Source of the DNA: an uncultured bacterium
GTDB taxonomy: Bacteria > Fidelibacterota > Marinisomatia > SCGC-AAA003-L08 > D37C17
Direction of reading: 5' to 3'
DNA: 64,000 nucleotides
NCBI GenBank assembly: GCA_964344315.1
Contig: CAYFMU010000006.1
Coordinates: 7,025-71,024 of the forward strand
The notes beneath the pieces were generated by a model that did no database searches, was not told the origin of the DNA, and saw only the letters and a list, made by a program, of their open reading frames with translations. This document shows, piece after piece, positions 11,622 to 64,000 of this stretch. A program made the translations under genes and the position numbers. Every line of letters begins with the position of its first letter. Position 1 is the stretch's first letter.

Positions 11622-12116
11622 TCAATTTTTATGTCTTAAGTTGATAAGATGTGATTTCCCATGTTCATCAAAATAGATATCAACCAATTGATTTAACGCT
11701 GAGGATAAACTTTCCACATATTTTTTATCTACATTTTGTTTACATTTCATGGCATAAAAAATGATTTTTTGACATGAAGTTGTTAGTTTAACATATTTTT
11801 CATATCCATCATCATTTTTACTTTTGGGTTTTAATCGTTGTGCAAGAAAATATTCTGAAACAACATTTTGAATATTCTGTGCATGAGTTTCTTTATTATT
11901 AACCCATCGAATCAATTGCTGTTGATTTTGGGCATTCTTTTCCATTTTATCAAGCTCATTAATTTTAATTATAGACTTACTAATGGTACTTATATCTTCC
12001 TCTATAATTAATATCCGTAATGCATCATCATATATCCCACAGGGAATTTGACAATGTGCTGATAAAAAATTTATGCAACAAAATGGTAGTAGCAGCAATA
12101 TGATTAATTTTTTCAT
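11622..12116 (-). CDS. sodN: Nickel-containing superoxide dismutase precursor
   Basis: The 20-aa leader MKKLIILLLLPFCCINFLSA is followed by HCQIPCGIYDD, which matches the Ni-hook motif HCxxPCGxY. The start ATG overlaps the secF stop (ATGA). Confidence 0.85.
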   Translation of the reverse strand: MKKLIILLLLPFCCINFLSAHCQIPCGIYDDALRILIIEEDISTISKSIIKINELDKMEKNAQNQQQLIRWVNNKETHAQNIQNVVSEYFLAQRLKPKSKNDDGYEKYVKLTTSCQKIIFYAMKCKQNVDKKYVESLSSALNQLVDIYFDEHGKSHLINLRHKN

Positions 12117-14874: not shown

Positions 14875-15043
14875 CAACTTTCCTTAGATAATAATTTTTA
14901 TAAAATGTATAAATTTGATACGAAAAAATGCACGCCAATTTACGCAGTTCATTTTTCTATATCAAAAGGCAAAAATGCACATAACGCTGTATTGCATAAG
15001 ACTTTTACTCACGGTAAATTTCAGCCCTTGATTTATATCCATT

Positions 15044-15820
15044 ATGAAATTATTTAATACAAAAACAATCGCAATATCTAATCAAAAGGGCGGTGTAGGT
15101 AAAACGACATCGGCTGTGAACATTGCCTCCTATTTGGCGGTTACAGAAACACCCACGCTTCTTATCGACATGGATCCACAGGCAAATGCCACATCTGGAA
15201 TTGGCATTGAAGTGGGAAGTTATAAAAAATCCGTTTATGATTTGATTATTGGGAATGCCAAAGCGAAAGACTGTATTCAGAAAACGGAACTAGAATTTTT
15301 AGACGTCATTCCCTCAAGTGCGCAGCTGGTAGGTGCGGAGGTGGAGCTCGTAAGTATGTTCTCCCGTGAAAAAATGTTGAAAGAGGCGTTGGAAGAGATT
15401 GATGGCAAATATAAATTCGTAATTATTGATAGTCCGCCTTCTTTGGGACTATTAACGGTGAATGTATTGACGGCAGCAGATTCTATTATTATCCCTATTC
15501 AATGTGAATATTATGCATTGGAAGGGTTATCACAATTGCTAAACAGTATTCGATTGGTTCAAAAACATTTAAATCCTAATTTAGAAATTGAGGGAATTCT
15601 CATAACTATGTATGATAATAGACTCAATCTTTCCCGTCAAGTAGTGAATGAGGTAAAAGAGTATTTCGATTCAAAGGTTTACAAAACATTCATCAAGCGA
15701 AATGTCCGTTTAGGTGAAGCCCCTAGCCACGGAAAACCAATTTTACTTTATGATGCGTCCTCTATGGGAGCGCAAAATTATATGAATTTAGTATCAGAAA
15801 TATTGGCGGCAAATGAGTAA
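15044..15820 (+). CDS. parA: Chromosome partitioning ATPase ParA/Soj
   Basis: Deviant Walker A motif NQKGGVGKTT, 258 aa, directly followed by parB. Confidence 0.92.
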   Translation: MKLFNTKTIAISNQKGGVGKTTSAVNIASYLAVTETPTLLIDMDPQANATSGIGIEVGSYKKSVYDLIIGNAKAKDCIQKTELEFLDVIPSSAQLVGAEVELVSMFSREKMLKEALEEIDGKYKFVIIDSPPSLGLLTVNVLTAADSIIIPIQCEYYALEGLSQLLNSIRLVQKHLNPNLEIEGILITMYDNRLNLSRQVVNEVKEYFDSKVYKTFIKRNVRLGEAPSHGKPILLYDASSMGAQNYMNLVSEILAANE

Positions 15821-29686: not shown

Positions 29687-30382
29687 TTAGCTATCTTCTT
29701 TAACAAAGGCTTGACCATCCCAAGAAAAGCCTTCGTACTCAAATCCTCCAAAGTCATCTGTAGAGGTTATTTCATTTTGAGCAATATATCGAATAAACTC
29801 ACCTTTTACTGCTTTCCCAAAGTGACCGGCAGCCGTTTTTTTACCTTTATTGATTACCAAGAAATCAACAGTAGTTACATTATTGCTGGCTTTATACGCT
29901 TTTCGGTGAACTTGAGGCAATAAATCAATAATTTTGTCTTCTTCTGCCAAGGACTCAGTCAGTACCGGATTCCAATGATGCTGTAACGATAAAACATTCA
30001 TTTTCAATTTATAATCCGGGATTAGCGTTTTAGGTGTTACCATTCCAAACAAACCGCTAAAAATGAGTGTATGCTCATCTAAGAAATTTTGAGCTTTATT
30101 ATCTAAAGTATGCCAATCAATATGTTCATAAACTACTCCAGTGTATCTTTCAATAGCATAGGCACAGCGGCTTTTGAATATATCTTGATTTTGTCGATGG
30201 AAGATCATGGCTTTTTCAGGAGAAGTACCATATACTGAGCGGAGGTCTTCGTCATCGATTAGCCCAAGTAATCGAACGACTTGATTAACATGACGTTCAA
30301 ATTTAAAATTTGTATCAGAAAATACAACTTCTTGTGGTTTTAGTTTTGCTTTTCCCTCACTCGGTGGAATAAGATATTTCAT
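29687..30382 (-). CDS. yaaA: YaaA/DUF328 family protein
   Basis: 231 aa. Blocks align by eye with E. coli YaaA: A..ERYTGVVY, IFSGLFGMV.P..LI.DYKLKM, and the C-terminal FEYEGFSWD. Confidence 0.6.
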   Translation of the reverse strand: MKYLIPPSEGKAKLKPQEVVFSDTNFKFERHVNQVVRLLGLIDDEDLRSVYGTSPEKAMIFHRQNQDIFKSRCAYAIERYTGVVYEHIDWHTLDNKAQNFLDEHTLIFSGLFGMVTPKTLIPDYKLKMNVLSLQHHWNPVLTESLAEEDKIIDLLPQVHRKAYKASNNVTTVDFLVINKGKKTAAGHFGKAVKGEFIRYIAQNEITSTDDFGGFEYEGFSWDGQAFVKEDS

Positions 30383-38496: not shown

Positions 38497-38526
38497 AAAT
38501 CCCCTCGAAAGAGGGGATTTGTTTTT
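38497..38526 (+). terminator. Rho-independent terminator after rocD
   Basis: 10-bp stem AAATCCCCTC / GAGGGGATTT with a GAAA loop, then GTTTTT. Confidence 0.87.
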
Positions 38527-38578
38527 ATGGCAATTTACTTTTCAATATAATTTCTTTTTTAATAACTTACCCGTTCAC

Positions 38579-41500
38579 ATGCATCCAATAATCATCATAT
38601 TGCTTATTACCCTTGCGGTACACTTTTTTACATGGACATATGTCTTTGCTCTAAACAGACGTGTATCATTGAATAAAACATATCTAGTATGGGTTGGATC
38701 CTTTATTTGTTGGATTTTTATGGACATAATGATGAGAAGTGTTTGGGAGGATACTTCCACCCTCTTGTTAAGAAGAATTATGTCTATCTTTTGGCAATTT
38801 TTAGGATTTGGTCTTGTAAACTTTATTTATGCTTTTTTAAACAAAAAACGCGATAACATTTACTACTTTTTTGGACTAAGCTATATTACGTTTGTAGCAA
38901 TTAGTTTTTTCACTGATTTAGCATTACCTCCTAATTTATATTTTAATCTCACCTTTGTATTTAATATTCTATTCCCAACCATTTACACGTTGTATACATT
39001 GCTTTATACATACACAAATAGTGAAAACCAAAAATATAATAAGCAGATTAAATCCATAATTTGGGGATGTGTAGTTGCATTTATACTTGGCTTTCTAGGT
39101 GATATTGTAGTTCACAATACTTGGGGAAATGATGTAAAATGGAGAATTGGATCAACAGTAACGATTCTACAGGCAGTTGTTTTTCTTCCCGCAATAATTA
39201 AGTATAATTTTCTCTTAACGCCTGTTGATGAGCGTGCAGTAAATTTATTTACATCCGTAGAAGAGGGGCTTATAATCATCAATGATAAAGGTGAAATTTT
39301 AAATTTAAATGAGCGTGCAAAGTCGTTATTAAGTGTGGAGAAAAAGCAGTGGAAACATCGACTCATTGATGAATATTTAAATAATTTTGCTATCGGGAAA
39401 GTATATAAAAATTATGAAATGCAATTAATAGAAAATCAAAATATATGGGTATCATGTTCTGTTTCACAGGTAAAAGAAATGAATGTTTTACTTGGGTTTA
39501 TCATTATATTCAGAGATGTTACTGATCGTCATATTGCTCAAACAGCATTAGCAGAAAGTGAACAGAAACTTCAACAAACACAGTCTGGAGCACAAGTAGG
39601 AAATTTTCAATATGACATATTAGATGATGAGGTAGTGTGGTCAAATGAATTATATCGAATTTATGGAATTGATCCCCTCGAATTTATTCCATCAAATCAA
39701 AACTTCTTAAATAAAATTGTTCATCCAGAAGATAAAGAATATGTTACTGAATGTATTGAGCAATCCATTAAAGACAATGTCCCAATAGATTATATACATC
39801 GAATAGTTCGCCCCGATGGTGAGATAAGAACCATGCATTGTATTGCGAGTACAGAATATGAAAAAGGAAAGCCAGTTGCTATATATGGTACATCACAAGA
39901 TGTGACGGAATTGTATAATGCGCGTGCCGAGTTACGGAAAAATGAAAAACAATACCGAAATCTGTTTGAGGGTTCTCCAGATGGAATTGTAATACATGAT
40001 TTAGAAAATATTTACTTTGCCAATTCTGCTACAGCAAAAATGGCAAATCTTCCCAGTACAAAAGAGCTCATTGGTCTAAATCCAACTCTATTTTTCCCAG
40101 AAGAAGAACGCGAACGAATGATGAGCAGAGTACAGTCTTTTCTAGAAGGAGAAAAGGTAGATATAAAATATGACTGGTATATTTCAAATTCTGGCGAAAG
40201 ACTATTTATCGAAGCCAAAAGTGTATTGATTAACTATAATGGAAAGCAGGTTTTACAATCTACTTTGCGTGATATTACAGAGCGTAAGCGTGCCGAAGAA
40301 GCACTATCCGAAAGTGAAGATCGATATAGGCGCTTAGTAGATTCTTCCCCATATTCAATAGTTGTTCATATTAATGATAAAATTGTATTTGCCAATAAAG
40401 TTGCAATCTCGACTTTAACTAATAATAATAATTCCAATATTTTGGGTAAATCAATTTGGGAGTTTATACATCCAGATAATATAAATGAAGCTAAAGAGCG
40501 AATTGAAAAAGTATACGAAAATCAGACGATTCCCATGGTTGAACAAAAAATTATTAGAACGGATAAATCTGAAATTTTTGTAGAGATTAAGGGAATTTCA
40601 ATTACGTATAATAATCAAGAGGCTATTCAATCAGTTTTTCGAGATATAAGTGATAGAAAACTTACTGAAAAAGAATTGAGAGAAAGCGAGGATAGATATC
40701 GTTATGTAATAGAAAATTCCACAGATATTATTTATAATACAGATTTTGAAGGTAAAATTACATTTGTAAATCCAGTATTCGAAGCAATTTCAGGCTATAC
40801 AGAATCAGAAGTATTAGGTGTTGATGCTAATGAATTTGTTGCACCAACCTATAAAGAAAAGATTAAAGAAATCTACTATGACTTTTTTATTTCTCATGAA
40901 ACTAGTTTTGTTACGATTATTCCAGCTATTTCCAAATTTGGAAATTTGATTTGGTTAGAGTTGAATACAAATAAAATACAAGAAGGTAAATTTGTATTAG
41001 GCTATACCATTATTGCACGGGATATAACATTAAGGAAAAATGCTGAAGATGCATTAGTTGAAAGCGAAGAGAAATATCGTACTTTGGTTGAGAATTCAAC
41101 AGAAATGATTTATAAGACTGATTTAGATGGGAATTATACGTACGTAAATCGAGTTATAGTGGAGAATTCGGGATTTTCAGAAGAAGAATTCCTAAATATG
41201 AATGTTTTTGATTTTATATTAGAAAGTTATAAAAGAGAAGTCCGTAATTATTATGCAAGACAGATTAAAGATAATAAGGCTATTGCATATTTTGAATTAC
41301 CCTGTTACAACAAGGATAAAGAAGTATTTTGGATTGGCCAATTATCACGATTAAATGTAGATGATAAAGGAAATCCTGTGGGATTTTCAATAACTGCAAG
41401 GGATATTACAGAAAAGCACAATGCTGAAACGGAATTAAAGGTGAGTGAGGAGCAGTATAGAAAGCTTGTGGAATCCTCTCCAGACGGGATTATCATTTAT

Positions 41501-44008
41501 AACAAAGAAGGCATATTGTTCGCCAATGAAATGGCGTTAAAACTTGCCAGAGCAAAAAATGAAACTGACCTAATTGGTAAACCCGTTTTAAATTTTATTC
41601 ACCCAAGCAATTTAGACTCTATAAAAGAGCGTATAGAAAAAATATATGCAGGTGAAGATTTAGACCATGAACATCAAACTTTTCTTCGAATAGATGGAAC
41701 GTCTTTTCACGCCGAAGCTAAAGGTGTGCTTATTACATTTAATAATAAACCTGCAGTACAAACTACAATTCGGAATATTTCTGATAGGCTTAAAGCAGAG
41801 CAAGTATTAAAAAACAGTGAACAAAGATATAGAGAACTATATGATAATGCACCTGCGGCATACTTTACTATATCTAAGGATGGTTTAATTGAATCATGTA
41901 ACGCACGTGTTTCTGAAATTTTAAATTATGATATTAAAGAACTCATCGGTAAAAAAATATTTAGCTTGTATGCTGATAATGACTATGGCAAACCAAGGGC
42001 GATGAAGGTATTTGAGCGGTTCAAACAAGGGCACATTTCTTTGAATGAAGAGCTCCAAATGATGAAAAAAGATGGGACCTCTATTTGGATTAACCTTACC
42101 GTATTTCCCGTAAAAGATAGTGAGGGGGAAATTGTTGAAACGCGTTCAATGGTAGTAGATATACATCAGCGAAAAGAAACTCAACGACAGCTAGAATCTA
42201 ATCGATTACAAATGCTTCAAGCCCAAAACATTGCCCAATTAGGAAGTTGGGAATGGGATTTAATTAATGAGAAATATTCATGGTCTGACAATCTTTATGA
42301 TTTATACGGAGTAAATCGCCAGGCGTTTGAAATTTCGGAAGAAAACTTTATTAGTTTGGTTCATGAAGATGATCGAAAGTATGTGAGAAAAACTATAAGT
42401 GATTGCCTTACTACTCAGATCCCCATGGATTATTACCATCGAACAATACCTATTAATGATAAAACGAGAACGATGCATTGCAACGGGATTGTTATTTCAG
42501 ATGAAAATGGAAATCCACTATCAATGGTAGGTACGGCTCAAGATGTAACTTCTCAGATAGAAGCAGAACAAGCACTAAAAGAGAGTGAAAAACGGTTGGC
42601 AAATGCACAATCTGTTGCACATCTAGGCAATTGGCAAGAAAATCATATCACAGGTGAATTGTATTGGTCTGATGAATGTAAACGTGTGTTAGGTTTTAAA
42701 GAAAACGAAGATATATCTCATGGATTATTTTGGGATTTAGTCCATCCCAATGATGTAGATGAATTAAAGGAAAAATGGGCATACAACGAAGAAATAATGA
42801 AACCTTACGAGGGTATATTTAGGATAATTTTGAAAAATGGCTCAGTTCGACATATTCGTGAAAAAGCAAATTTCAAGAAGGATGCCAACGGACAGCTCTT
42901 ATTAACTATTGGTACCGTACAAGATATAACCGAATTAGAGGAGTCTCGACTTCTAATAGAGAAAAGTCAAAAAAGATTACAAGAAGCACAGCATCTAGCG
43001 CATATTGGAAATTGGGAGTTTGATGCACAAACTGGCAACACCTTTTTGTCTAATGAGTGTAAACTTTTATTTGGATTTTCAATAAATCAGCACATCGAAA
43101 ATGAGGAATTCTGGAAAAAAATACATCCTGAAGACCATGATTGGCTATTAGAATTATGGAATAATTCTAAGGAGTCTCTAAAGCCCTATAAAGTAGTTTA
43201 TAGAATATATAAAGATAGTGATCTAAGATTCCTGAGAGAATCAACAGAGTTTACCGCAGACAAAAATGGAAAAATGTTAAAATGCTTGGGAACGATTCAG
43301 GATATTACCGCAGAACGTGAAGCAGAAGATGAAATTAGAAATTCACGAGAAGAGCTTCGAGAACTATCAAAACATTTACAGACTATTCAAGAAGAGGAAC
43401 GTGCTTTTATTGCAAGGGAAATCCATGACGAATTGGGTCAACGATTAACTGGAATTAAGATGGATTTATCATGGATAAAAAATAAATTATCGGATGAAAA
43501 TGTTGACCTTTTTGAACGGATTACGTCCTTAAACGAGTTAATTGATGATACAGTGAAATCCGTTCGAAAAATAAGCTCAGAACTGCACCCAGCAATTTTA
43601 GATGATTTAGGTTTACGAGCGGCAATTGAATGGCAAGTAAGTGAATTTGAAAAACGAACTGAAATTAACTGTGATATGAACCTTGAAGAAAACGATTTGG
43701 ATTTTGACAAAGATCAAGCTAAGGCGATTTTTAGAATTCTTCAAGAATCTCTTACCAATATAATGAGGCACTCACAGGCAAAAAATGTAGAAATAAATCT
43801 ACTGCAGGCTAATGATGAAATTGGGTTAAATATTAAAGATGATGGAGTTGGGATTAAACATTTGAATGAATCCGCACAAAAATCATTTGGAATTTTAGGC
43901 ATGAAAGAGAGAGCTTACTCGCTTGGTGGAACCTTAACAATTTTAAGTGAAGAAAATAAAGGCACAAATATTAATTTAAGTATCCCTGTTGAAATGGAGA
44001 AAATATGA
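38579..44008 (+). CDS. Giant sensor histidine kinase: 7-TM input domain, about 11 tandem PAS domains, HisKA_3 plus HATPase_c
   Basis: The first ATG after the terminator is 38579. Seven hydrophobic helices are followed by a PAS array (about 39230..43330) with recurring S-E-x-(R/K/Q)-Y-R linkers. The H-box is REIHDELGQRL (His codon 43424..43426), and the ATPase has N and G boxes (LTNIMRHS, DDGVGI, GILGMKERA). Confidence 0.9.
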   Translation: MHPIIIILLITLAVHFFTWTYVFALNRRVSLNKTYLVWVGSFICWIFMDIMMRSVWEDTSTLLLRRIMSIFWQFLGFGLVNFIYAFLNKKRDNIYYFFGLSYITFVAISFFTDLALPPNLYFNLTFVFNILFPTIYTLYTLLYTYTNSENQKYNKQIKSIIWGCVVAFILGFLGDIVVHNTWGNDVKWRIGSTVTILQAVVFLPAIIKYNFLLTPVDERAVNLFTSVEEGLIIINDKGEILNLNERAKSLLSVEKKQWKHRLIDEYLNNFAIGKVYKNYEMQLIENQNIWVSCSVSQVKEMNVLLGFIIIFRDVTDRHIAQTALAESEQKLQQTQSGAQVGNFQYDILDDEVVWSNELYRIYGIDPLEFIPSNQNFLNKIVHPEDKEYVTECIEQSIKDNVPIDYIHRIVRPDGEIRTMHCIASTEYEKGKPVAIYGTSQDVTELYNARAELRKNEKQYRNLFEGSPDGIVIHDLENIYFANSATAKMANLPSTKELIGLNPTLFFPEEERERMMSRVQSFLEGEKVDIKYDWYISNSGERLFIEAKSVLINYNGKQVLQSTLRDITERKRAEEALSESEDRYRRLVDSSPYSIVVHINDKIVFANKVAISTLTNNNNSNILGKSIWEFIHPDNINEAKERIEKVYENQTIPMVEQKIIRTDKSEIFVEIKGISITYNNQEAIQSVFRDISDRKLTEKELRESEDRYRYVIENSTDIIYNTDFEGKITFVNPVFEAISGYTESEVLGVDANEFVAPTYKEKIKEIYYDFFISHETSFVTIIPAISKFGNLIWLELNTNKIQEGKFVLGYTIIARDITLRKNAEDALVESEEKYRTLVENSTEMIYKTDLDGNYTYVNRVIVENSGFSEEEFLNMNVFDFILESYKREVRNYYARQIKDNKAIAYFELPCYNKDKEVFWIGQLSRLNVDDKGNPVGFSITARDITEKHNAETELKVSEEQYRKLVESSPDGIIIYNKEGILFANEMALKLARAKNETDLIGKPVLNFIHPSNLDSIKERIEKIYAGEDLDHEHQTFLRIDGTSFHAEAKGVLITFNNKPAVQTTIRNISDRLKAEQVLKNSEQRYRELYDNAPAAYFTISKDGLIESCNARVSEILNYDIKELIGKKIFSLYADNDYGKPRAMKVFERFKQGHISLNEELQMMKKDGTSIWINLTVFPVKDSEGEIVETRSMVVDIHQRKETQRQLESNRLQMLQAQNIAQLGSWEWDLINEKYSWSDNLYDLYGVNRQAFEISEENFISLVHEDDRKYVRKTISDCLTTQIPMDYYHRTIPINDKTRTMHCNGIVISDENGNPLSMVGTAQDVTSQIEAEQALKESEKRLANAQSVAHLGNWQENHITGELYWSDECKRVLGFKENEDISHGLFWDLVHPNDVDELKEKWAYNEEIMKPYEGIFRIILKNGSVRHIREKANFKKDANGQLLLTIGTVQDITELEESRLLIEKSQKRLQEAQHLAHIGNWEFDAQTGNTFLSNECKLLFGFSINQHIENEEFWKKIHPEDHDWLLELWNNSKESLKPYKVVYRIYKDSDLRFLRESTEFTADKNGKMLKCLGTIQDITAEREAEDEIRNSREELRELSKHLQTIQEEERAFIAREIHDELGQRLTGIKMDLSWIKNKLSDENVDLFERITSLNELIDDTVKSVRKISSELHPAILDDLGLRAAIEWQVSEFEKRTEINCDMNLEENDLDFDKDQAKAIFRILQESLTNIMRHSQAKNVEINLLQANDEIGLNIKDDGVGIKHLNESAQKSFGILGMKERAYSLGGTLTILSEENKGTNINLSIPVEMEKI

Positions 44009-44640
44009 TAAAAATACTCATCGTCGATGATCATGCAATTGTAAGAGATGGACTAAAACGAATAATTAATGAAACTTCTGGAATGGAAGTGGTAGATGAA
44101 GCAGAAAATGGACAAATTGCATTAGAAAAAATTTGGAATAAGATTGATATAGACATCGTTATTTTGGATATATCCATGCCTGGACGATCAGGGCTTGATG
44201 TCTTGAAAGAGATAAAGAACTTTAATTCTAGCATCCCTGTGCTCATGCTAAGCATGCATGCGGAGGATCAGTATGCACTCCGAACATTAAAAGCAGGTGC
44301 CTCAGGATATGTTACAAAAGAAGTAGCTTCAACTAAGTTAGTAGATGCAATTCGAAAAATTAATAGTGGTAGTAAATTCATTAGCGAAGAAGTTGCAGAA
44401 CTTTTAGCCCTAAGTTTAAATGAAAAAAATACAGATGTTCCCCATAAACAACTATCGGATAGAGAGTATCAGGTTTTAACGATGATATCCTCTGGGAAAA
44501 CAGTTATAGAGATTTCGAAAGAATTAAATTTAAGTGATAAAACTATCAGTACCTACCGAACAAGAATTCTAGAAAAAATGAAAATGAAAACTAATGCAGA
44601 GCTTACCCATTATGCTATTTCGAATAAATTGGTCGACTAA
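44005..44640 (+). CDS. NarL/FixJ-family response regulator (REC plus LuxR HTH)
   Basis: ILIVDDH...VILDISMPG receiver and a C-terminal LSDREYQVLTMISSGKTVIEISKELNLSDKTISTYRTRILEKM. ATGA overlap with the kinase stop. Confidence 0.92.
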   Translation: MIKILIVDDHAIVRDGLKRIINETSGMEVVDEAENGQIALEKIWNKIDIDIVILDISMPGRSGLDVLKEIKNFNSSIPVLMLSMHAEDQYALRTLKAGASGYVTKEVASTKLVDAIRKINSGSKFISEEVAELLALSLNEKNTDVPHKQLSDREYQVLTMISSGKTVIEISKELNLSDKTISTYRTRILEKMKMKTNAELTHYAISNKLVD

Positions 44641-51651: not shown

Positions 51652-52689
51652 CTATTCTGAGACAATTGTTTCTAACCTGTCAATTACAAAATTCACATCG
51701 GTCTCTGATATTCCCCTATGGGTAACCAATCTAAATCTATTGGGCTGTACTTCAAAAAATTGAATATTACTTTCGGCCATTTTTTTAACAAGTTTTTGCC
51801 CAGTTAAAACTTTAGGGTTTACTCCAAAATATATAATATTTGATTTTACTTTTTCAGCATCAACAAACAAACCATCAATCTTGTCTATACCATCTGCTAA
51901 TATCTTGGCATGGTTATGGTCAGTATTTAATTGTAAAACCATTTCATTTATAGACACAAGACCAGCAGCGGCAACAATTCCTCCCTGTCGCATTCCCCCT
52001 CCTAATGCTTTTCTAATTCTTCGGGCTTCAAATATAAATTTTTCAGAACCACATAAAACTGAACCTACAGGAGATGCTAACCCTTTAGAGAGGCAAAAGG
52101 TAATAGAATCTACATCTTTTACCAGTTGATGTACATCCATATTTAAGGCTACAGAGGCATTAAAAATTCGTGCACCATCAACATGAAGTTTTACATTATT
52201 TTCTTTGGCAATGGCAGACACTTCACTGAAATACTCTGGAGGTATGGGAGAACCATTACACATATTGTGGGTATTCTCTAATGAAATGAGAGAGGTTCGT
52301 GGAAAGTGTACATTTTCTTTTCGGAATGCGTTTTTAATGAGGTTTATATCTATAGTGCCGTCTTCGTTGTTGGAGAGTTGATGCGAATGAATCCCCCCGA
52401 ATGCTGAAATTCCACCAGCCTCATAAATAAATGTATGGGATTTATCTCCTAATATTGCCTCGGTACCGCGGGGGCAATGGACCAAAAATGAAATGAGGTT
52501 GCCCATTGTTCCACTGGGAACAAACAATGCCGCTTCTTTTTGTAATAGTGCTGCCGATTGTTTTTCCAATTTTATTATTGTTGGATCTTCTTGAAGGACA
52601 TCATCACCAACAGTTGCAGTATGCATGGCGTTTCGCATGGATTGAGTTGGTTGTGTTACCGTATCGCTTCGTAAATCTATAGCTTTCAT
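51652..52689 (-). CDS. ltaE: Low-specificity L-threonine aldolase
   Basis: N-terminal DLRSDTVTQPT..MR.AM....VGDDV and SGTMGNL, 345 aa. Confidence 0.85.
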   Translation of the reverse strand: MKAIDLRSDTVTQPTQSMRNAMHTATVGDDVLQEDPTIIKLEKQSAALLQKEAALFVPSGTMGNLISFLVHCPRGTEAILGDKSHTFIYEAGGISAFGGIHSHQLSNNEDGTIDINLIKNAFRKENVHFPRTSLISLENTHNMCNGSPIPPEYFSEVSAIAKENNVKLHVDGARIFNASVALNMDVHQLVKDVDSITFCLSKGLASPVGSVLCGSEKFIFEARRIRKALGGGMRQGGIVAAAGLVSINEMVLQLNTDHNHAKILADGIDKIDGLFVDAEKVKSNIIYFGVNPKVLTGQKLVKKMAESNIQFFEVQPNRFRLVTHRGISETDVNFVIDRLETIVSE

Positions 52690-52738
52690 AATTTTCTCGT
52701 TTTGGATTATGGAAAATTTAATGATTCATATAGAAAAC

Positions 52739-52767
52739 AAAAAACCTCTTCGTTGAAGAGGTTTTTT
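52739..52767 (-). terminator. Rho-independent terminator after the M43 protease gene
   Basis: Stem AAAACCTCTTC / GAAGAGGTTTT with a short loop, flanked by A and T runs. Confidence 0.75.
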
Positions 52768-52823
52768 GCTCTTTAAACTTAAATGTTTAAAGATGGTGTA
52801 GGAGGAAGAATGCAATATAACAA

Positions 52824-55331
52824 TTATGTATTCAATATAGAATTTACTATATCAACTAAATCGATTACGTTAATATTTCCATCTGAGTTGAAGTCTGCAA
52901 GACCCAATACGGAGTCATCTAAATCATTATTCCCAACAATGTAGCCTACAATTTGAACAATATCTAAAATATCCACAGTAAAGTCATCATTTACATCACC
53001 AGGAAGTGTAGATGCCGTAGCTTCTAACAAACTGGGGCGGTAAGTTTCAATTGCCCAATGAATTCTACTTTTTTGCCCTTCAGTAAAGAAGTACATACAA
53101 TCATCATCTACATAGTCCATAAAATTACCAATATCTTCAGGAACACCACATGAACTTGCCCAGCTTGGGCAACCTAAATTATCATATGCTTGTGGGGGAG
53201 TATCATCCACTTCATCACCAGGCGCTGCACATCCATTTTCAAATGTATGGTAGAGCCCCAGATAGTGTCCAGCTTCATGAAGACCCGTATCCCCTTCATT
53301 TACACCCCAAGCACCGCCTGGATGTGTGAAATTAGCACAATAAAGACCATGATTATGACTATCTTCTGGGAATGACCATGGGTATACGCCTAAACCATAA
53401 ATTCCGCCACCAGTAGTCCAATAATAGTTTAGCGTATGTGCGGGATCAATACTGGTGTTACTGGCCATATCAAGATACATATCTTCGCATTGCCATTGTC
53501 CTGTATCCCAATCTTTATTTCCTGCCGCATAATACCAACCTGAATTATTAAGTCTATCAATGGACTGAATACTAAAAGAATAACCAAATTCATTATATAC
53601 GGAATTTAGATGGTCAGTTTGCAATTGCATAATATTATCATGAAGATCACCATCAATAAAATCTCCTTCAGGAGCTGTAAAATCGTTGAATCTATATTGA
53701 CCGTACCATCCAATATTTGCCAATACATTGCCTTGGCTATCTGTTACATTTCCCGTAACACCACCGTCACCATAGTCATCCCATAAGAATAGTGCATACT
53801 CACCGGGAGTTAATACCCCACCCAAAGAATAATTATGATACGCATAGTCAAATCCAAAACCTGGATAAAGTAAAAAGGTATTATTTTGATAATCCCAAAT
53901 ATCCCATACAGCTTCCCAATAGTAGCTATCTACTTGTACATTCATAAGACTAGAAATATCTTTGGTACGCATACGTAATTTTAATAATGCAGAGAGAATC
54001 ACTTCGGTATTGCTTAAATTGGGATGTTCTTGTTGAAGCGTATTAAAAAAATCATTATGGACATTGGTGAAACGGGTTTCAAACTCTTTCCAATTAATAT
54101 TTGTACCATCCTCATTAAGATCATCTAAATGAATAGATGGAGAATGGGAATCCACACTGTCATCATCGTTTGGATGTTTTAATTTTCCTAATTCGTTATT
54201 TAGATTAATGGCTTTTAATAAATATGCAGCAAGTTCTTTCTCTTTTGATTCTAACTCATCATGTAGTTCTTTATCTTCTGATTTTAGATCTATAACATTT
54301 AAGCGAGTGGTTAATTCTTCAATAGCTTGTTCTTTTTTTGAGAGTTTCTCTAAATATTGTTCATTTAATACTTCTTCATTGAGCTTCAATGATTTTTTTA
54401 GATTTTCTAACGCCTGTTTATAATTGGATTCTTTTTCATAATAATTAGATAGAAATTTGTATGCATCTCGTTCTTTATTTTTCATTTTATGTTCGCGGGT
54501 CAAATCAATGCATTGTTTTATCCAATCTTTACCTAATTTATAATTATTTTGTTCAAAATTAAGCCTTCCCATCCCCATTAGTAAATCGGCTCTCACTTTA
54601 GGGTCAAATTCAATTTCTGTATTTTTAAGTCCTTTTTGCAGAAAAGATTTAGCTTCATCTAAATTTCCATTTACCATAGAAATTGATGCTAAAGAATTTA
54701 ATGCATAGGCAGAAATTCGAATTTCTTCAGGAATACCTTTTACATCTTTTAATGCTTTTTTTAAGTATTGAGATGCAAGGGAATATTCCTCTAACTCTTG
54801 GTAACACACCCCAATGTTTAGATGTGCTCGCCCTACCTCCATTTTATTTTGCTTCATCTCTTTAATAGAAATGGATTTTTTGAAGTAAGCAATAGCCTGT
54901 TCAAAGTTTTTATTTATATTATAAACCGCTCCTAAATTTGAGTAAAGAGAAGAGAGGATTCGTTTATTTTTTAGTTTTTCAGATAAGGTAAGGGCATCAG
55001 TATAAAACTGGATTGCATTTGAATTATCCCCTTCTTCGTAAGCCACCAATCCTTGCTGAAGTTTAATTAAGGCATAATTATCAGGAGAAGAATGGATATC
55101 AAACTTTTGTATTGTTTTTTGGACAGCACTCTTTGCATTTGAGATTTGCTGCTGGATGTAATAGCCCCAAAATATGAGAATATGAGCTTTAAAAATATGA
55201 TGTTCTTCAATAAATCCTGTTGCATGGTCAATAATTTTATTGAGTTTTTTAATGGTATTCTCTGGATTGGCATAAACCTTTGATTCAGCATCATTAATTT
55301 GAGTTATGTAATGTTTTTTACTTTTTGCCAT
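52824..55331 (-). CDS. Chimeric ORF: TPR plus coiled-coil plus truncated LuxR-type HTH (aa 1-465) fused to a DxYGDG beta-domain, M43 (pappalysin/ulilysin-type) metalloprotease and dockerin-like tail
   Basis: No signal peptide. TPR units span aa 90-320, and the HTH remnant is LSNTEVILSALLKLRMRTKDISSLMNV. The junction is near 53936. The zinc motif HEAGHYLGLYH (53247..53279) is followed by GDEVDDTP. The dockerin-like 60 aa lie at 52827..53006. Confidence 0.7.
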   Translation of the reverse strand: MAKSKKHYITQINDAESKVYANPENTIKKLNKIIDHATGFIEEHHIFKAHILIFWGYYIQQQISNAKSAVQKTIQKFDIHSSPDNYALIKLQQGLVAYEEGDNSNAIQFYTDALTLSEKLKNKRILSSLYSNLGAVYNINKNFEQAIAYFKKSISIKEMKQNKMEVGRAHLNIGVCYQELEEYSLASQYLKKALKDVKGIPEEIRISAYALNSLASISMVNGNLDEAKSFLQKGLKNTEIEFDPKVRADLLMGMGRLNFEQNNYKLGKDWIKQCIDLTREHKMKNKERDAYKFLSNYYEKESNYKQALENLKKSLKLNEEVLNEQYLEKLSKKEQAIEELTTRLNVIDLKSEDKELHDELESKEKELAAYLLKAINLNNELGKLKHPNDDDSVDSHSPSIHLDDLNEDGTNINWKEFETRFTNVHNDFFNTLQQEHPNLSNTEVILSALLKLRMRTKDISSLMNVQVDSYYWEAVWDIWDYQNNTFLLYPGFGFDYAYHNYSLGGVLTPGEYALFLWDDYGDGGVTGNVTDSQGNVLANIGWYGQYRFNDFTAPEGDFIDGDLHDNIMQLQTDHLNSVYNEFGYSFSIQSIDRLNNSGWYYAAGNKDWDTGQWQCEDMYLDMASNTSIDPAHTLNYYWTTGGGIYGLGVYPWSFPEDSHNHGLYCANFTHPGGAWGVNEGDTGLHEAGHYLGLYHTFENGCAAPGDEVDDTPPQAYDNLGCPSWASSCGVPEDIGNFMDYVDDDCMYFFTEGQKSRIHWAIETYRPSLLEATASTLPGDVNDDFTVDILDIVQIVGYIVGNNDLDDSVLGLADFNSDGNINVIDLVDIVNSILNT

Positions 55332-62489: not shown

Positions 62490-63119
62490 ATGGCAAAATC
62501 CCAACCATTTAATGTGGTAGATGACATTGGTCTTTCCCATACCCTAGCGTCCACATTTTACACTGAGGATGAGTATTTTGAAATTTCAAAAGAGAAGATT
62601 TTTAGCTCATCTTGGCAACTCATCACTCATAAAAATCAGTTACAAGGTTTAACTCAATATCCATTTACCTTTTTAAAGGGGTATATAGATGAACCGTTGG
62701 TGCTTACTCAAGAAAATGAAATAACCCATTGCTATTCAAATGTATGTACTCACCGTGCCCATTTAGTCTGTGTAGATGCCTGTGATAAATCACTGCTACG
62801 ATGCAGATATCATGGTAGAACTTTTGAGCTTGATGGCAAGATGAAAGCCATGCCAGGTTTTGATGAGGTGAAGAATTTCCCCACTGAAAATGATAATTTA
62901 ACCCACATCCCGTCATTAATTTGGAAAGATTTTATCTTTGTTTCATTAAATCCAAAAATGGATATTCAACCAATTTTTGATGATATTGAACATCGGTTAC
63001 AGGGCTATGAATTTGATAAATTAGAATTAGATGAGAGATTGTCCAAATCCTATGAAATTGATGCTCATTGGGCACTATACTGCGAAAACTATTTGGAGGA
63101 GTTCCACATTCCATTTTAA
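62490..63119 (+). pseudogene. Rieske [2Fe-2S] non-heme iron oxygenase alpha subunit, 3'-truncated
   Basis: The Rieske motif CTHRAH...CRYHGRTF is present. The ORF stops at EEFHIPF-TAA, inside the mononuclear-iron H-x4-H motif. About 209 aa remain of what I would expect to be a considerably longer (roughly 350 aa or more) protein, and the catalytic domain is absent downstream. Confidence 0.65.
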
Positions 63120-63466
63120 CACCATCTATTGCATTTTCACAAAATCGTACAGATAATATTGACTATTACTACGAGGGATGGGCTGCTGCCGAAAGAGATT
63201 ATGGAGGTGGTGGAGCAATTGTAGGTGGCCTAGGTAGTGGTTTTCTATTAGGTTTAATCGGATGGGCTGTTGGTCTTGCGATAGTTGCAAATCAAAATGT
63301 TGAAGTTCCGTATCATTATCTATTAGAGTTAAGTAATTCTGATAGAATGAGGTTTGAACAAGGATATAAAGATGCTGTTAAAAAGAAACGTAATGGTAAT
63401 TTTAATGTGGGTGCAGGATTGGGTACTCTATCAGCGGTTATCTTTATGTTGAATGCAAGCAGTTAG
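63068..63466 (+). CDS. Small glycine-zipper membrane protein, apparently lacking its own 5' end
   Basis: The open frame has no ATG in its first 95 codons; the ORF-track start is TTG inside the Rieske gene. It contains GGGGAIVGGLGSGFLLGLIGWAVGLAIV and a second hydrophobic C-terminal segment. Confidence 0.35.
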   Translation: MGTILRKLFGGVPHSILTPSIAFSQNRTDNIDYYYEGWAAAERDYGGGGAIVGGLGSGFLLGLIGWAVGLAIVANQNVEVPYHYLLELSNSDRMRFEQGYKDAVKKKRNGNFNVGAGLGTLSAVIFMLNASS

Positions 63467-63490
63467 TTGATAATATTAACTGTTAAATAG

Positions 63491-63522
63491 TTAGCGGTGT
63501 TGGTTTACTCCAACACCGCTAA
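63491..63522. terminator. 13-bp perfect hairpin between convergent genes (no clear U-tract)
   Basis: TTAGCGGTGTTGG / CCAACACCGCTAA with a 6-nt loop. The right arm overlaps the last codons of the peroxiredoxin gene. Confidence 0.45.
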
Positions 63523-63960
63523 TACATCCTGGGCATGTGAGCCTGTTTTCACTTTTTCGAATGTATGCTCAATCATGCCATTTTCATCAATAATATAGGT
63601 GATTCTGTATATACCCATATACTCTCGACCCATGAATTTTTTTAGTCCCCATGCTTCATATGCCTTCAGCATTTCATGTGATTCATCACTGAGCAGAGGA
63701 TATTGAAATCCATATTTTTCGGTAAATTTTAATTGACGTTTTACTGGATCTGCAGACACCCCAAGTATTTGTACATCACTATTTTCAAAATTTTGGAATT
63801 CATCACGGAATCCCTTGCCTTCAACGGTTCAACCAGGGGTACTGGCTTTGGGATAAAACCAGAGTACCACTTTTTTCCCTTTAAAATCTTCTAATGACAC
63901 CATATCCCCATGCTCATTGGGTAATGAAAAGGATGGTGCCTTATCTCCAACATTTAACAT
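63505..63960 (-). CDS. bcp: Bcp/PrxQ-type peroxiredoxin with in-frame TGA at the peroxidatic Cys position (candidate selenoprotein, or a nonsense pseudogene)
   Basis: ATG 63960 is preceded by GGAGA. Translation gives MLNVGDKAPSFSLPNEHGDMVSLEDFKGKKVVLWFYPKASTPG-[TGA 63831..63829]-TVEGKGFRDEF...GVSADPVKRQ..., continuous with ORF 63505..63759 in the same frame. Confidence 0.7.
63795..63814 (-). promoter_or_regulatory. SECIS-like stem-loop 14 nt downstream of the in-frame UGA
   Basis: The RNA forms GGGAUUC-CGUGAU-GAAUUCC, a 7-bp stem (one G-U pair) with a 6-nt loop containing GU. The loop lies about 22-27 nt after the UGA. Confidence 0.45.
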
Positions 63961-64000
63961 AAATTCTCCAAATTGAATATGAATTCCTGAATTGCGAATA

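Follow-up and report, generated by a model that had tools for sequence, protein, structure and literature searches.

A probable selenocysteine-containing Bcp/PrxQ-type peroxiredoxin with a SECIS-like hairpin in a Marinimicrobia bacterium

The 64,000-nucleotide (nt) stretch of contig CAYFMU010000006.1 that was analyzed here (the window), which is assignable to the Marinimicrobia (SAR406/Fidelibacterota), carries close to its right end a gene for a Bcp/PrxQ-type peroxiredoxin (prx) that very probably encodes selenocysteine (Sec) at its catalytic position. The sole interruption of the peroxiredoxin frame is a TGA codon in the context F-Y-P-K-A-S-T-P-G-[TGA]-T, the position of the peroxidatic Cys. 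An earlier note on this DNA, made from the letters alone, had described a complete Bcp/PrxQ peroxiredoxin of 151 codons with a single TGA in that place, and the translation and two family profiles agree with this description. With Cys replacing the stop, the translation matches the AhpC-TSA domain PF00578 at an E-value of 1.1e-38 (132.4 bits versus a cutoff of 26) and, over residues 2-150 of 151, the Bcp equivalog NF006960, “thioredoxin-dependent thiol peroxidase” (183.7 bits versus a cutoff of 140). The nearest solved structures are likewise bacterial BCPs, those from Burkholderia (5enu) and Xanthomonas campestris (3gkk and 5iiz), with E-values from 2.5e-31 to 1e-26. Residues P37, T41, U44 (Sec), and R119 fill the canonical catalytic positions of peroxiredoxins; given what is established for the family, we take Arg119 to be its conserved catalytic Arg. 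The protein contains no Cys residues.

The features of the locus are listed in Table 1. Upstream of prx and divergent from it lies a glutaredoxin gene (grx), which falls just outside the window and was read from the public ENA contig ERZ930072 k127_101480 (75.9 kb, referred to here as L163). This contig showed no mismatch to the window over the 10.5 kb compared; it reaches 9.8 kb past coordinate 64000. By its coordinates, it can span only window positions from approximately 10066 to 64000 and some 22 kb beyond, so that the window must derive from another, longer assembly of this population. At the other end of the gene, a perfect hairpin spans the prx stop codon and is probably a bidirectional transcription terminator, shared by prx and the convergent open reading frame (ORF) 63068..63466. 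A consensus terminator scan did not list this hairpin because it has no U tract.

Table 1. Features of the prx locus, in window coordinates; CDS, coding sequence
Feature	Position	Strand	Remarks
Glutaredoxin gene, 82 aa (W-C-P-S-C, Cys form)	equivalent to 64034..64282; L163:9478-9726 (-)	+	Divergent, just outside the window, 73 nt upstream of the prx ATG
Putative Shine-Dalgarno-like sequence GGAGA	63965..63969	-	4 nt 5' of the ATG, read from the sequence; homolog alignments begin at the same Met
Bcp/PrxQ-type peroxiredoxin CDS (prx)	63505..63960	-	151 sense codons, from ATG at 63960 to TAA at 63507..63505; predicted Sec at residue 44
Active-site motif P37-K-A-S-T41-P-G-U44 (PxxxTxxU)	63829..63852	-	Predicted Sec codon TGA at 63831..63829
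SECIS-like hairpin GGGAUUC-CGUGAU-GAAUUCC	63795..63814	-	Within the CDS, in the codons for G-F-R-D-E-F; starts 14 nt after the UGA
Arg119 codon	63604..63606	-	Motif R-x-T-[FY]-x-I-D; counterpart, by alignment, of the “GIERSTFLID” Arg of 5enu and X. campestris BCP
Perfect 13-bp hairpin over the prx stop codon, probable terminator	63491..63522	-	-22.6 kcal/mol, z = -7.4; 0 of 200 shuffles as stable

The TGA codon is a stable property of this gene and its relatives. An identical 456-nt gene, including the TGA, is present in five contigs of project PRJEB17505 that were assembled independently from four sequencing runs, those of the source population being ERR2281800, ERR2281801, ERR2281804, and ERR2281806. 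Beyond these, TGA occupies the same codon in 67 related loci, 66 of them of the Marinimicrobia type and one from a member of the Gemmatimonadaceae, and in the Marinimicrobia-type loci the protein identity (55-80%) continues across it. A scan of one genome per GTDB species found 14 loci at 59-70% identity, mostly labeled Candidatus Neomarinimicrobiota or Fidelibacterota and otherwise “uncultured bacterium,” and TGA was present in all 14; in the same scan, the Gemmatimonadaceae metagenome-assembled genome (MAG) also had TGA, and the remaining 65 loci, from other phyla, had TGC or TGT. A metagenome scan added 52 TGA-carrying loci. NCBI MAGs with the gene include JABMOW01, JABHXA01, JACNLQ01, NZUX01, PCCQ01, PARL01, JASMKZ01, and JBHHUC01. 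In all, 90 loci with a recognizable motif, from other lineages, have TGC or TGT at the peroxidatic codon. The comparison suggested earlier, whether close relatives carry TGA or TGY, thus came out in favor of TGA in every Marinimicrobia-type relative, with no TGY among them. The nearest Cys-form locus with the motif WFYPKASTPGC (L131) lacks the grx and glyS neighbors and is therefore not a syntenic Cys ortholog. When 59 distinct TGA-carrying sequences are aligned without gaps, protein conservation is unbroken through the TGA and synonymous change is plentiful elsewhere, and purifying selection is evident on both sides of this codon across the 67 diverged loci.

The Gemmatimonadaceae gene (L057:3130, MAG JABWBJ010000155.1) represents an independent lineage with a Bcp that has TGA at the peroxidatic codon. 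It retains the resolving Cys at position +5 (U-T-I-E-A-C), and its UGA is followed by a structure of another kind, GC-rich and far more stable (-31 kcal/mol over 66 nt).

This gene fares poorly in public annotation, and the earlier expectation that standard gene callers would split or miss it proved correct. The mechanical ORF list divides the locus into a 43-aa N-terminal piece, for which a database look-up returned no record, and an 84-aa C-terminal piece that begins at a GTG. In the ENA calls on long contigs (L163-L167), the two parts are a 62-aa piece, which starts 19 codons upstream of the true ATG, and an 84-aa piece. On short contigs, the gene is translated in full with Trp at the Sec position: the best 120 matches in a collection of 5.8 billion proteins all have “W” at residue 44 and are full-length, with 150-156 residues except for two longer ones of 163 and 175. 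This “W” is the signature of gene callers that switch to genetic code 4 on short AT-rich contigs. Because public calls either split or mistranslate the gene, the main thiol peroxidase of this lineage is misannotated in protein databases.

Just downstream of the UGA, the mRNA can form a short hairpin that matches the earlier description of it in sequence, in position, in its distance of 14 nt from the UGA, and in the placement of the loop nucleotides 22-27 nt after the UGA. Its conserved core comprises 6 bp, with 63813..63808 paired to 63801..63796 around the apical loop CGUGAU (63807..63802). The seventh, G-C pair (63814/63795) is not conserved and forms in 26 of 60 sequences. An outer stem present in the minimum-energy fold of the window sequence (UUGAAG/UUUUGA) was discarded, as it is not conserved and RNAalifold keeps 6 bp only. 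No Rfam family matched at gathering scores in the whole window, and a search of 63400..64000 at E-values up to 10 returned noise only.

Part of this stem is imposed by the protein: the peptide G-F-R-D-E-F forces pairing by itself, with GGN-UUY-CGN-GAY-GAR-UUY self-pairing at five positions under any synonymous choice. Since the stem is to this extent an automatic consequence of the peptide, synonymous sites provide the relevant test of the hairpin, and in the 59 TGA-carrying sequences they depart strongly from the background codon usage of the same genes. Phe at +7 from the Sec codon is encoded by TTC in all 59 (against a background of 83% TTT and 17% TTC), Arg+8 by CGT (46) or CGG (13) and never by AGR (58% in the background), Gly+6 by GGA (35) or GGG (23) and never by GGY (54% in the background), and Glu+10 by GAA in all 59 (81% in the background). 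At codon +11, Phe is encoded by TTC (38) or TTT (1) and Leu by CTY (16) or CTA (1), never by TTA. Only codons +6 to +11, and in a tail those up to +16, show a synonymous entropy as low as 0-0.5 bit per codon; the conserved Arg, Gly, and Phe codons outside the hairpin vary freely. A single pair is free to vary (24-37 in the alignment, joining the wobble base of Gly+6 to base 1 of codon +11); 35 sequences have A-U here, 17 have G-C, 7 have G-U, and none has a mismatch.

The pairing as a whole was assessed on an alignment of 60 sequences, in which 91.2% of the cells are paired, a value reached by none of 500 shuffles; register-slid controls gave 9-64%. RNAalifold, run on the same 60 sequences, independently recovered the 6-bp stem. 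At least 6 of the 7 pairs can form in 58 of 62 Sec-form loci; in Cys-codon homologs mostly 2-5 of 7 do. In two variants (L092 and L097), the peptide has changed from R-D to S-S or R-S and the stem is not only kept but extended by an A-U pair, with loops GUUC or GGUC; what is constrained at this site is the RNA and not the peptide. The hairpin therefore passed the check proposed for it at the outset, conservation in homologs that carry TGA, and Cys homologs lack it. It is these comparative data, and not thermodynamics, that make the hairpin significant and indicate RNA-level selection on it.

The hairpin resembles the bacterial selenocysteine insertion sequence (bSECIS) in most respects. The published bSECIS consensus comprises a loop of 3-9 nt on an upper stem of 4-16 bp, at least one G among loop nucleotides 1 and 2, mostly with G or U after it, a distance of 16-37 nt from the UGA to the apical loop, and a minimum free energy of at most -7.5 kcal/mol (PMC13188914). 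Here, the loop has 6 nt (CGUGAU) and the stem 7 bp, of which 6 bp are conserved; the loop begins with C-G-U in 46 sequences and C-G-G in 13 (G-U-U-C and G-G-U-C in the variants); 21 nt (63828..63808) separate it from the UGA; and the energy is borderline, lying on either side of the threshold (-5.9 to -9.3 kcal/mol) depending on the span folded. As in the E. coli fdhF and fdnG elements, the hairpin is located inside the CDS just 3' of the UGA and has a small loop in which a G close to the 5' side precedes U or G. Unlike those elements, it is much shorter and weaker, with only 6 bp conserved, and its stem is largely set by the codons for G-F-R-D-E-F, with selection on the synonymous sites.

The divergent grx is found in 54 related loci, of which 21 have TGA as the first codon of its active site and the other 33 have a Cys codon, like the present genome. 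The TGA-containing forms have the motifs W-U-P-S-C, W-U-G-P-C, W-U-G-S-C, and W-U-G-A-C (UxxC) and carry a 7-bp hairpin approximately 32 nt after the UGA, of the general form AUNNCAA-[A/G]GG[U/G/C]-UUGNNAU, which is absent from the Cys forms. Its stem shows compensatory changes (GACAA/UUGUC, GAUAA/UUAUC, GGCAA/UUGCC, AGCAA/UUGCU, and AGUAA/UUACU). By these sequence criteria, the lineage appears to hold at least two selenoprotein families side by side, which provides strong, if indirect, evidence of an active Sec-decoding system.

Together, these observations make it very likely that the gene is a genuine Sec-containing Bcp/PrxQ peroxiredoxin of a Marinimicrobia bacterium. We infer that Sec is inserted at UGA-44 and that SelB binds the hairpin. 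UGA-44 would be read in translation as Sec and not as a stop, with the mRNA hairpin (a 6-7-bp stem with the 6-nt loop C-G-U/G-G-A-U) bringing SelB-GTP-Sec-tRNA(Sec) to the ribosome in the manner of bacterial SECIS elements. The selenolate of U44, held in the PxxxTxxU pocket with Arg119, would then attack H2O2 or organic hydroperoxides, yielding a selenenic acid. Because the protein has no Cys, it could form no internal resolving bond, and recycling by an external thiol partner is the most likely course; the best candidate is the neighboring glutaredoxin, together with glutathione or another low-molecular-weight thiol, and thioredoxin would be the alternative.

A resolving Cys, located at +5 or in helix alpha-3 (+36), is typical of the BCP/PrxQ proteins and not obligatory, as 1-Cys BCPs exist. 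The +5 Cys is found in 82 of the 90 Cys forms versus only 2-3 of the 60 Sec forms, and the present protein has K49 in its place. The +36 Cys, equivalent to C84 of the X. campestris BCP, is present in 25 of the 60 Sec forms and replaced here by Thr80. The view that the whole Sec clade lacks a resolving Cys is therefore wrong; a resolving Cys is absent from 17 of the 60 Sec forms, including this one.

Several observations weigh against this interpretation. No selA, selB, selD, or tRNA-Sec gene was found in the 64-kb window, in its 9.8-kb extension, or in approximately 1 Mb of related loci: tblastn with E. coli SelA, SelB, and SelD gave no match in the window or these loci, no tRNA-Sec was detected in the window, L163, or 160 loci, and none of the 40 annotated ORFs (of the 47 large ones in the window) is selenium related. 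Three SAR406 single-cell genomes have been reported to encode SelD as an “orphan,” lacking selenoproteins and any further Sec component (Peng et al. 2016), the only listing of Sec machinery in Marinimicrobia that was found in the literature. These genomes are partial; the present gene suggests that the orphan status of SelD reflects incompleteness, and the presence of SelD itself speaks in favor of Sec use. Further, the short hairpin is only marginally stable in thermodynamic terms (-5.9 kcal/mol when bare, -7.4 within 31 nt, and -8.7 to -9.3 within 51-66 nt), and its single-sequence folds are not significant (over 66 nt, z = +0.66; over 31 nt, z = -1.66, with 14 of 200 shuffles folding as well). 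Folding energy, being no better than that of shuffled sequence, was dropped as an argument for the hairpin and replaced by the comparative data. The change from A-U to G-C may have arisen independently no more than one to three times. Finally, glutaredoxin is a candidate reductant only by virtue of its conserved neighborhood and the absence of a resolving Cys from the peroxiredoxin.

What doubt is left belongs mostly to hairpin-assisted recoding of UGA-44 to Cys, through a SelB-like factor and a Cys-charged tRNA resembling tRNA-Sec, the chances of all other explanations being negligible. A conserved UGA at a Cys position and a downstream hairpin do not discriminate Sec from Cys, and the SAR406 genomes with SelD and no SelA or SelB could be seen as a hint of such recoding. 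It is nevertheless improbable: systems of this kind are rare, having been described in a few bacteria; SelD in SAR406 points to selenium use; Cys-codon orthologs exist elsewhere, so that costly recoding to the same residue would bring no obvious benefit; and the Global Ocean Sampling (GOS) analysis classed these sequences as selenoproteins. Still less likely is termination at the UGA, with the locus yielding a 43-residue peptide plus an 84-residue fragment begun at the GTG, and with a hairpin that serves some other end, such as pausing or mRNA stability. Both the ORF finder and the ENA gene calls (62 and 84 residues) divide the locus in this way, but neither fragment would form a thioredoxin fold or a whole active site, with P37, T41, and U44 on one and R119 on the other. 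Moreover, all relatives keep the frame and the conserved residues through the TGA, conservation at the protein level includes the 23 codons from the TGA to the GTG, and the hairpin is confined to the TGA-carrying forms.

Decoding of TGA as a standard amino acid, either Trp (code 4) or Gly (code 25), would make the “W” in the databases correct, and the 120 homologs called with W and the AT-rich genome (approximately 35% GC) seem to speak for it. The genetic code of the window does not: read with the standard code, 90% of the window falls in 47 large ORFs free of internal TGA, which end in TAA (36), TGA (6), or TAG (5), and in sodN and secF the terminal TGA coincides with the end of the family profile. 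TGG, at a normal 1.26% of codons, encodes Trp. That TGA is a genuine stop elsewhere in the window had been noted before and holds for 6 of the 47 large ORFs, sodN and secF among them; reassignment to code 4 or code 25 was rejected on the ORF coverage, the TGA stops, and the TGG usage. Either Trp or Gly at the peroxidatic position would also abolish catalysis, according to established peroxiredoxin chemistry, and the TGA of grx, found on the same contigs in relatives, again replaces a redox Cys. The chance that a changed code explains the TGA is accordingly minute. The same is true of a dead or misread Cys-Bcp whose TGA arose by a fresh nonsense mutation or through faulty sequencing or assembly; a nonsense mutation and a base-call error had been named as the competing explanation in the earlier note. 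An intact gene broken by one in-frame stop alone would fit this view, as would the neighboring Rieske oxygenase gene, which is truly truncated in this genome. It is excluded by the identical gene in five independent assemblies and by the TGA in 67 diverged loci and 120 protein clusters, with residues conserved on both sides and no TGY in close relatives, and the Sec-containing Bcp proposed in the earlier note is supported.

As a Sec-containing Bcp, the protein belongs to a class that the earlier note rightly called known; the exact subtype was already present in the GOS selenoproteome of 2008. Sec-containing “Prx” (PF00578, TxxU) was among the six most abundant GOS selenoprotein families, with 253 sequences, and ranked among the most abundant in the Sargasso Sea data as well (Zhang & Gladyshev, PMC2398784). 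Prx (TxxU) has also been listed as a verified selenoprotein family (PMC13188914). Dataset S1 of the GOS study holds sequences of the form ...WFYPKASTPGU...GQGFRDEF..., with 35 occurrences of “KASTPGU” and 21 of “GFRDE[FL]” (PMC2398784). The present protein has the same domain and the same T-x-x-U position of Sec. In contrast to the GOS entries, which come from anonymous reads, it is encoded in a 64-kb context assignable to Marinimicrobia and next to a divergent glutaredoxin gene, and this copy has no Cys. The neighbors reported in the GOS paper were Prx/SelW and not the divergent Prx/Grx pair seen here.

Relative to Cys-containing Bcp/PrxQ proteins (the E. coli Bcp family NF006960, 5enu, and X. 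campestris 3gkk/5iiz), it has the same fold, length, PxxxTxxC position, and conserved Arg, and it differs in having predicted Sec for the peroxidatic Cys, with the +5 resolving Cys gone from nearly all Sec forms. PrxU of the Eubacterium acidaminophilum type (NF040737) and Prx-SUH (NF045827) are likewise bacterial selenoproteins with the peroxiredoxin fold, but they represent different subfamilies: the present protein scores 39.1 bits against a cutoff of 270 for the former and 19.3 bits against a cutoff of 298 for the latter, whose motif is CxxU.

Glutaredoxin-dependent peroxiredoxins include the Prx-Grx hybrid of Haemophilus influenzae and the plant type II Prx. The grx-prx pair in 54 loci suggests a similar recycling, by glutaredoxin and a thiol, of a peroxiredoxin that lacks an internal resolving Cys. 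Unlike in the H. influenzae hybrid and plant type II Prx, the genes here are separate, the peroxiredoxin is a BCP and not of the Prx5/type II kind, and either partner may carry Sec; the functional link is a proposal.

The gene is thus an unannotated example of an established selenoprotein family and does not change the current understanding of selenoproteins. Three incremental points are possibly undescribed so far: the assignment to Marinimicrobia, the conserved grx-prx pair with a Grx that switches between Sec and Cys, and the footprint that a minimal SECIS leaves at the codon level. With this assignment, a marine selenoprotein subtype long known only from anonymous sequences gains a host, and the grx-prx pair offers a testable hypothesis on the reductant of a peroxiredoxin without a resolving Cys. 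The Sec/Cys polymorphism of the partner Grx provides a natural series on when Sec pays off, and the locus shows cleanly how a SECIS within a CDS shapes codon choice and even the peptide.

A broader proposal can be put forward only tentatively, with the balance leaning somewhat against it: that Marinimicrobia have a dedicated two-gene selenoenzyme module of glutaredoxin and peroxiredoxin, in which the Prx always contains Sec, the Grx contains Sec or Cys depending on the species, no resolving Cys is fixed, and Sec insertion depends on a 6-bp SECIS of unusually small size in the G-F-R-D-E-F codons. Marinimicrobia rank with the most abundant bacteria of the dark and oxygen-poor ocean. If such a module exists, much of the anonymous marine “Prx” selenoprotein signal would belong to them, and SAR406 would be a substantial biological selenium sink in the deep ocean.

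A search of the window for other selenoprotein genes, based on two-piece ORFs joined by TGA and on redox-motif contexts in intergenic regions, gave only antisense or noise candidates. Upstream extensions through TGA of parA (14888..15820) and of a beta-eliminating lyase gene (51652..52869) were unsupported, as the family profiles already begin at the called ATGs.

Among the neighboring genes, the Rieske-domain oxygenase gene (62490..63119, plus strand) ends after 209 aa (...NYLEEFHIPF*), at the start of the catalytic iron motif, and its orthologs in five related loci run to approximately 360 aa (...FHIPFVHKGL...). ORF 63068..63466 (plus strand) takes the place of the missing 3' half and encodes a glycine-rich, apparently membrane protein of 132 aa with no Pfam match and no homolog in the 160 related loci. 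The same arrangement is seen in independent assemblies, and the truncation or replacement looks real and not like an assembly artifact. Elsewhere in the window, sodN (11622..12116, minus strand) encodes a nickel superoxide dismutase that scores 53 bits, below the equivalog cutoff of 90, and the gene at 29687..30382 (minus strand) encodes the peroxide-stress protein YaaA (PF03883, 3e-44). The 1,829-aa ORF 38519..44008 (plus strand), termed a sensor kinase in the earlier note, ends in TGA and overlaps by 4 nt the gene for a LuxR-type response regulator (44005..44640, plus strand).

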